Positions 1,573 to 2,259 of a DNA stretch of 4,666 nucleotides are shown in pieces (the first letter of the stretch is position 1; each line of letters opens with the position of its first letter). The DNA lies in IMG/VR virus record IMGVR_UViG_2534682252_000033, one strand, 5' to 3'. The notes under the pieces were generated by a model, which was not told the DNA's origin, made no database searches, and saw only the letters and a list, made by a program, of their open reading frames with translations. This DNA comes from a virus (Duplodnaviria > Heunggongvirae > Uroviricota > Caudoviricetes). Both the position numbers and the translations under genes were made by a program.

Positions 1573-1689
1573 GGGGATTTATCGATTTCTAATCCCTTGA
1601 TATGTTAGGTATATAATCCAACACTCATGGTCGCTCTCATAAACATATCCCTTGAGACGCAGCAGATTACAACAAATGAAGCCATATAA

Positions 1690-2004
1690 ATGAACAGTAA
1701 AGAAAGTTTGCGCAGAAGATTTTTACAACTAATGACAGAAAACGTTAAATCAGAGTTACTTCTTCTGATGGCAGATAATAACGAAGCAACAAGCAGCATT
1801 CTTGCAGACCCTTACGGTAAGATCTCACATAAAACGCTGGATATTATTACCACAACATTAACACCGCTGATGCTTCAACGGCTGAAACATAATATCAACG
1901 CATGGGTTAATGAAGAATTAAGTCCTCCCTGCTTATGGGATTCTCGTTACGCATGTCAGCAAAAAATGCGAATTTTCAACTTACTATCACCAAAGCTCAG
2001 GTAG
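1690..2004 (+). CDS. Hypothetical 104-aa protein on the strand opposite the lysis genes, within the AT-rich segment between holin and endolysin (possibly the YdfR/DUF1327-type small protein of Qin-like prophages; unverified)
   Basis: Only protein-like ORF in the 1573..2259 AT-rich segment; hydrophilic, helix-prone composition. No strong Shine-Dalgarno. A perfect TATAAT hexamer lies at 1612..1617 upstream. The YdfR assignment is from memory of gene order in E. coli K-12 Qin (essQ-ydfR-rrrQ) and needs a search. Confidence 0.45.
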   Translation: MNSKESLRRRFLQLMTENVKSELLLLMADNNEATSSILADPYGKISHKTLDIITTTLTPLMLQRLKHNINAWVNEELSPPCLWDSRYACQQKMRIFNLLSPKLR

Positions 2005-2259
2005 CCATAAAATCCTGCCCTTCATGGCATACAGGATTTCAATGGAATCACAATGACCAACTCTTGCACAGCTGTATCCCTGACTCCCCGACAACTCAGA
2101 TTTTCAGTATCTGCTGCTATCTAAAGAGAAAGCGCACAAATGCAAGGGTCTTTCATCACGTCCTGTTATTGATTGCCTGTGACCTTTTCTTACCTCATGG
2201 AACGTTTTTTCAGTTAGAAATATTCATTTTACAACCAGTTCGTATTGTTTATTCATCGA

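Follow-up and report, generated by a model that had tools for sequence, protein, structure and literature searches.

An uncharacterised PHROG 1853 gene, probably a self-standing moron, lies antisense to the lysis operon between the holin and endolysin genes of lambdoid prophages

Introduction

Why should a gene that reads against the late operon lie between a holin and an endolysin? The question is raised by a 4,666-nucleotide stretch of DNA from a virus of the Caudoviricetes (IMG/VR record IMGVR_UViG_2534682252_000033; hereafter the window), in which a phage 21-type holin gene and a SAR-type lysozyme gene are separated by 687 bp (1573..2259). A sequence-only reading had described this interval as an AT-rich segment of about 690 bp carrying a single protein-like open reading frame (ORF), antisense to the late operon and preceded by a perfect TATAAT. 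It proposed a horizontally acquired moron with its own promoter, and offered the YdfR/DUF1327 small protein of Qin-like prophages as a possible identity for the product.

Lambdoid morons such as bor, lom and the lc/nmpC porin genes are extras inserted among conserved late genes, in many cases on the other strand, and are expressed from the prophage. The moron concept is that of Juhala and Hendrix. Here we ask whether the antisense ORF is a gene, to which family it belongs, how it came to stand in this interval, and what its product might do.

A foreign segment and a gene remnant inside the lysis cassette

The layout of the cassette is given in Table 1. The AT-rich interval is confirmed, at 39% GC against 53-54% in the flanking genes (0.390 over 1573..2259, 0.384 in the ORF and 0.404 in the spacer beyond it; 0.543 in the lysozyme and 0.531 in the holin gene), and GC3 is 0.37 against 0.60-0.64 in the flanking genes. 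The antisense ORF of 104 codons and the TATAAT upstream of it are both exactly as described.

Table 1. Coordinates of the features discussed, in window numbering
Feature	Coordinates	Strand	Remarks
Sialate O-acetylesterase-like gene (SASA + DUF6645)	about 4633..2914	-	First late gene in window order
Phage 21-type class II holin, 68 aa	2466..2260	-	PF04971, E 1.3e-32
ydfR-family stub, MNKQYELVVK then stop	2256..2224	-	Shine-Dalgarno GGAGAG inside holin 3' end
Non-coding spacer	2005..2223		Found only with window-type allele
ORF: 104-aa protein, 12.1 kDa, pI 9.3, soluble, five helices	1690..2004	+	PHROG 1853 member
Short inverted repeat (…CTCTCA-N13-TGAGAC…) in ORF 5' leader	1632..1660	+	Retained by most close relatives
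Putative -10 element TATAAT of the ORF's promoter	1612..1617	+	Conserved block in relatives
Lysozyme-proximal segment common to ydfR-type cassettes	1573..1610		Homology with ydfR-type locus L002
SAR-type phage lysozyme, 177 aa	1572..1039	-	PF00959, E 7.6e-24
Rz and Rz1	downstream of lysozyme	-	Last late genes in window order

Alignment to a ydfR-type cassette (L002) places the insertion boundaries more tightly. DNA homology stops at about 1610 and resumes at about 2221, so that the foreign core is about 1611..2220; a foreign segment is indeed present, but it is narrower than the whole 1573..2259 interval that had been proposed. The lysozyme-proximal segment outside it contains the lysozyme start region on the minus strand and, on the plus strand, the weak -35 region of the ORF's putative promoter. 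As had been noted, the endolysin, whose translation has a Gly/Ala-rich segment at the N-terminus, starts without a Shine-Dalgarno sequence (aaatcgataaatccccATG). The ydfR-type cassettes that are free of the foreign segment equally lack one at this start, so the feature is not specific to the present arrangement and the insertion is not its cause.

Directly past the holin stop lies a remnant of a ydfR-family gene, reading ATG-AAT-AAA-CAA-TAC-GAA-CTG-GTT-GTA-AAA-TGA. Its product matches the N-terminus of YdfR at eight of ten residues in L002 and at all ten in P0124. The expectation that late transcripts would be untranslated across the gap is borne out for about 650 nt but not for these first 10 codons, which have a good Shine-Dalgarno sequence. 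Polymerase modified by Q is terminator-resistant, so polarity from the untranslated 650 nt or so is not expected.

The spacer beyond the stub has homologues in loci of the same (window) type only. It probably derives from the 3' part of the ydfR-family partner gene (minus strand), now decayed: it gives a weak tblastn match to the partner C-terminus (E 0.07-0.4; 2183..1974, minus strand), and in all relatives the first 30 or so nucleotides past the ORF stop resemble the partner's last codons. It also diverges about 2.5 times faster than the ORF. In the window-type slot the ydfR-family gene is reduced to the 10-codon stub and some 220 bp of decayed DNA, with the opposite-strand gene intact.

The antisense ORF is under purifying selection

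An ORF in decaying, AT-rich DNA may be an accident, and the prophage copies that surround this one are often defective through IS insertions and frameshifts. Of 3000 dinucleotide-shuffled versions of the interval, 1.7% contained an ORF that runs for 104 codons or more from ATG to stop. Sequence statistics alone are only suggestive, and comparative data therefore decide the status of the ORF.

We recovered the encoding DNA of 12 diverged homologues (43-100% identity). The ORF frame has no internal stop in any of the 12 and a length of 104-107 codons, and every other frame over the same DNA has 2-14 stops across the set. By the Nei-Gojobori method, dN/dS in the ORF frame is 0.14-0.39 for every pair with a computable dS, over a dS range that starts at 0.5 and reaches saturation. 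The out-of-phase frames give about 1. Values in between come, as they should, from the antisense frame whose third codon positions coincide with those of the ORF, and that frame is not open. Near-identical variants show the same tendency, with synonymous to nonsynonymous codon changes of 5:2, 6:3 and 7:4. Among close variants the ORF differs by 2.2-3.5%, the spacer by 6-8%, the upstream DNA by 8-11% and the flanking holin and lysozyme genes by 10-27%. Even between two decayed prophage remnants (L011 and L013) the ORF retains a dN/dS of 0.22. Two further ORFs over the region, of 64 aa (1605..1799, minus strand) and 120 aa (1935..2297, plus strand), are interrupted by stops in close relatives and are not conserved.

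The protein encoded by the ORF is under purifying selection. The equal synonymous and nonsynonymous rates that would mark a lack of coding constraint are not seen in the ORF frame, and we consider the ORF, on this comparative sequence evidence, almost certainly a genuine gene. A chance reading frame in junk DNA is very improbable: a conserved frame, low dN/dS, a confident structural model (below) and a constant length over 12 diverged homologues in several genomic contexts all argue against it, and frame conservation with dN/dS of 0.14-0.39 refutes it as a candidate explanation.

The same comparison corrects the annotated start. The RefSeq form (WP_000138558.1) has 90 aa and begins at 1732, at a methionine (Met15) that is isoleucine in the clade of Stx2 phage 86. 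The ATG at 1690 is kept in all copies, which makes the 104-aa form the better start call.

A small orphan family spread through STEC prophages

The product belongs to PHROG 1853 (E 3.5e-47, 161 bits; residues 1-102 on profile positions 57-158 of 159). It has no hydrophobic stretch, and AlphaFold2, with an 18-sequence alignment, models it as a five-helix bundle at pLDDT 89 and pTM 0.79. Despite this confident model, the structure check found no fold match. Homology searches returned a small family with full-length members at 43-79% identity, and an exhaustive profile search over 1.84 billion representatives yielded 20 proteins, all of this same family. No member was found in species-representative genomes. 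The small yield and the absence from species representatives mark the family as a narrow orphan of E. coli and Shigella prophages. Its phage 86 clade was reached by protein-level search only, and megablast of the interval against deposited phages gave no match.

Domain and function resources were equally silent. Pfam gave no match for the ORF at E 0.1, nor for 18 family members at E 10; NCBIfam did not match the ORF protein; PDB sequence profiles returned nothing significant (best E 0.04); and no defence family of PADLOC-DB 2.0 matched the ORF or two partner proteins at E<=1. Literature searches on the ORF's protein accession, on genes between S and R in Stx phages and on the lysis genes of CP-933O found nothing.

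Within E. coli a copy is detectable at the DNA level in 674 of 5426 complete genomes (about 12%). Copies of the window allele in O157:H7, O121:H19, O103:H2, O111 and others agree at 99% identity or more, and the gene is nearly identical across the main STEC serotypes. It is 100% identical to the "unknown protein encoded within prophage CP-933O" of EDL933, through whose genome the 104-aa form has been in the databases as a hypothetical protein since 2001. The ORF is thus an accessory gene that is uncharacterised but already catalogued. Its place is within the lysis cassette, beside the Shiga-toxin late region, and it would bear on Stx phage biology if its product affects phage exclusion, prophage induction or lysis.

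The product is distinct from YdfR and PerC

YdfR was a natural candidate. YdfR of the Qin prophage and the longer YdfR-family proteins (PHROG 1085) occupy the same holin-lysozyme slot, the window itself keeps a 10-codon stub of such a gene, and the ORF product and YdfR are similar in length (104 against 103-110 aa). The assignment is refuted all the same. None of 18 family members matches PF07041 at E<=10, whereas YdfR of L002, our positive control, reaches 153 bits (E 2.2e-45) against this profile; profile-profile comparison with the YdfR/partner family by hhalign yields a probability of 0.05% (E 0.83); and the proteins fall into different PHROGs (1853 as against 406, 2091 and 1085). Whereas ydfR is a member of the late operon, the ORF lies on the opposite strand, and the predicted folds are unrelated, the ORF model being all-helical and the DUF1327-domain model, at low confidence, beginning with beta strands. 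We regard homology with YdfR/DUF1327 as practically excluded, which removes a tempting mis-assignment.

The PerC/Pch regulators of EHEC prophages (about 104 aa) resemble the ORF product in size, helicity and prophage origin, and are found in the same late regions (L002, L011), but there is no sequence relationship. The ORF product has no PF06069 match and an hhalign probability of 0.3%.

A combinatorial slot in which the gene moves on its own

We surveyed the slot in 160 IMG/VR loci and several assemblies. In related prophages (L002, L009, L072, L081) ydfR, encoding DUF1327, fills it on the operon strand. In the Stx2-converting phage 86 the order is S - orf5 - orf6 - R, where orf5 lies on the operon strand and orf6 (BAF34038.1) is a homologue of the ORF, about 49-53% identical, of the same length and orientation and in the same position next to R. 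The two loci differ in the facing gene: that of phage 86 is intact, a 268-aa fusion of DUF1327 with the C-terminal partner domain, and that of the window is destroyed. Other loci hold the partner C-domain with the ORF, DUF1327 and partner with the ORF, the partner with or without DUF1327 and no ORF, or the ORF alone. The ORF occurs alone in three arrangements, namely the window type (255-bp spacer), L067 (about 237 bp) and L073/74/77 (about 100 bp), and is likewise without a partner in L014/L015.

These arrangements indicate that the holin-endolysin junction of phage 21-type cassettes is a combinatorial accessory slot. In lambdoid and Stx prophages it would be a hypervariable site, where two kinds of gene can be combined in any way: a ydfR-family gene (DUF1327 and/or the C-terminal partner domain, PHROG 1085), which lies on the operon strand, and a PHROG 1853 gene on the opposite strand. 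Loss appears to run in both directions. Loci without the ORF have 46 bp between partner and lysozyme, and this gap still holds the ORF's final codons (AAC AGA TAA) in reverse complement, which identifies such loci as deletion derivatives; the window type is the opposite deletion, with the partner lost and the ORF kept.

The gene is also found outside the slot. The convergent pair of L017 and L018, whose identity is about 43% or lower, is placed on the upstream side of the holin and not in the holin-lysozyme gap, and in L017 holin and lysozyme overlap directly. In L014/L015 the ORF is upstream of an lc/nmpC-type porin gene and antisense to another lysis cassette (holin_8, holin_3_7, GH108). In L011-L013 it is intact in decayed remnants whose lysozyme and Rz genes are fragmented or gone. 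The ORF is independent of the partner gene, of cassette position and of functional lysis genes.

Two side observations belong to these loci. The porin genes of L014 (3711..4823) and L015 (2318..3430) share the strand of the ORF homologue and begin some 395 bp downstream of it, between Q and the holin_8/GH108 cassette and antisense to the late operon; the ORF homologue and porin could be co-transcribed. Several O157 genomes (L001 4339..5551; L019) have an IS3-family insertion in the lysozyme gene next to this cassette, together with frameshifts in terminase and portal genes; many carriers are therefore defective prophages in which the ORF is still intact.

It is possible that the ORF encodes an antagonist or immunity factor for the product of the facing ydfR-family gene, in which case the window would hold the orphaned half of a two-gene module, or that it modulates lysis timing through the holin or endolysin. 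The convergent pair recurs from 100% down to about 43% identity with 3' ends that abut or overlap by at most 21 bp, the arrangement is kept where the pair has moved upstream of the holin (L017, L018), and a scrap of the partner's 3' end follows the ORF stop in every context. YdfR has been reported to bind the catalytic (N-terminal) domain of RNase E, and possibly RNA (PMC13232886), so the partner family may have a cellular target needing control. The ORF is also a back-to-back neighbour of a lysis-gene start in almost all phage-like contexts, an adjacency that could reflect a lysis-related role and not merely an insertion hot spot.

Against this, about 33 of the 80 partner loci are without the ORF (about 47 have it), and the ORF alone, in at least three independent arrangements, remains under purifying selection. 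That the two are so often uncoupled, in either direction, speaks against an obligate pair, and an obligate toxin-antitoxin or immunity module was rejected on the same co-occurrence. The ORF is intact where the lysis genes are gone (L011/L012), and a factor needed in lysis would be expected on the late-operon strand. The AlphaFold2 model of the partner protein (pLDDT 49) was unusable. We consider the partner or lysis-timing explanation unlikely.

Upstream signals and the case for a moron

About 130 bp of upstream DNA co-travels with the ORF, and within it the TATAAT, which lies just within the foreign segment, 1-2 nt from its left junction, is part of a block (GTATATAATCC) that is unchanged in 9 of 11 relatives while its flanks vary. 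The block is also kept in copies from other contexts (L011, L013, L014, L016). By count alone the hexamer is unremarkable, with one copy on the window against about two expected by chance. It is weakened in L067 and L073 and missing in the phage 86 clade. The putative -35 (CTAATC, 1589..1594, plus strand) is poor, which explains why a consensus promoter scan called none upstream of the ORF. The inverted repeat in the leader carries a G-C to A-T double change in L014 and could be an operator or a leader hairpin; the fold energy of the leader is no better than that of shuffles (z 0.23).

The phage 86 clade has a plus-strand hairpin followed by TTTTT about 45 nt upstream of the ORF start (L009 3380..3420; L010) in place of the TATAAT block, and a strong GAGGA Shine-Dalgarno sequence before the ORF. 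Expression signals therefore differ between clades.

These features resemble those of lambdoid morons in several ways. The ORF comes as an additional gene between neighbours that adjoin one another in relatives, its composition is unlike that of its flanks (GC 0.39 against 0.54), it runs opposite to the late operon and brings along an upstream region with a conserved -10, and in L014/L015 it lies directly upstream of an lc/nmpC-type porin gene on the same strand. Unlike the usual lambdoid moron, it has no convincing plus-strand terminator after its stop (we found only a weak 5-bp stem at 2434..2448), and its position between S and R, inside the lysis cassette, is unusual. It also differs from bor, lom and lc, which encode envelope proteins, in that its product is predicted to be soluble and cytoplasmic. 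The proposal of a moron with its own promoter is accordingly favoured by foreign composition, independent mobility and the co-conserved TATAAT, but weakened by the poor -35 and the missing terminator. By analogy with known morons, we put the probability that the ORF is a self-standing moron, expressed in the lysogen from its own promoter, at roughly 60%.

The lack of a terminator has a further consequence, as a plus-strand transcript running on from the ORF would be antisense to the holin. It might be supposed that the segment acts mainly as RNA, such a transcript covering the spacer and holin and damping leaky lysis-gene expression, with the peptide secondary. In all phage contexts the ORF does face the late operon head-on. 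Selection, in contrast, is on the protein, with dN/dS well below 1 in the ORF frame alone and the frame open; homologues of the spacer are confined to window-type loci, and its divergence outpaces that of the ORF; and the gene persists without any lysis gene to regulate. Nor was there a structure signal: the 255-bp spacer gave fold z scores of 0.15 (plus strand) and -1.9 (minus strand) and had no distant homologues, and Rfam 15 covariance models found no match to 1573..2259 at E<=1. A primarily RNA-level function seems quite improbable.

Possible roles of the product

As a self-standing moron, the ORF would be transcribed against the late operon from its own sigma-70 promoter, consisting of the TATAAT and the weak -35. 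Its product would be made in the lysogen, a prediction that draws on orientation, the conserved -10 and the analogy with bor and the lc/nmpC porin, and would be silenced after induction by head-on, Q-antiterminated late transcription. The product itself would be a soluble cytoplasmic protein that binds protein or nucleic acid to the benefit of the lysogen.

Phage exclusion and the modulation of host regulation would be the likeliest classes of function. Any one specific activity, be it exclusion, defence or regulation, is at best a doubtful assignment. It is tempting to speculate that the gene encodes a new lysogen-expressed factor with an unrecognised fold, either a single-gene exclusion or defence determinant or a host regulator that has recently swept through STEC prophages, or the controlling half of a convergent module. 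We think this bolder proposal improbable; if the module version were true, the other half would be the YdfR family, targeting RNase E.

Other features of the window

Several observations concern the neighbouring genes. The esterase is split in the window into ORFs 3815..4633 and 2914..3678 (minus strand) with a frame switch near 3680..3815. It is intact in L001 (616 aa), to which the window copy aligns with 6 gap openings, and has 654 aa in other relatives. The window copy is probably a pseudogene.

Phage 21 S has a dual start that yields the S71 antiholin and the S68 holin. The window's holin ORF has a single ATG (2460..2480, minus strand; MEKITTG…, 68 aa) with no in-frame upstream start, and relatives, L003 among them, have a form of 71 aa. 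The window's copy may be without an antiholin isoform.

From the esterase stop to the holin start (2467..2913) there are three units of a hairpin followed by a U-run. The operon strand has one, immediately before the holin start (stem 2548..2522, fold z -3.1); the plus strand has the other two, ending at about 2762 and about 2912 (z -2.7 and -4.5), each preceded by a TTGACA-like box. Rfam gave no match to these units. A 2026 preprint describes the sRNA genes pasA, pasC and pasD1 in the order esterase - Pas - holin - lysozyme, and the hairpins coincide with that location, an agreement by position alone.

On the other side of the cassette, 278 bp separate the lysozyme stop from Rz. A 50-codon ORF (705..857, minus strand) with a hydrophobic C-terminus ends just before the likely Rz start. 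Directed against the operon is a strong plus-strand hairpin with a T-run (917..955; AAAACCCCG…CGGGGTTTTT), which explains a weak, sub-threshold Rfam match to the 'rimP leader'. Relatives carry small unannotated genes or an ant gene at this lysozyme-Rz gap.
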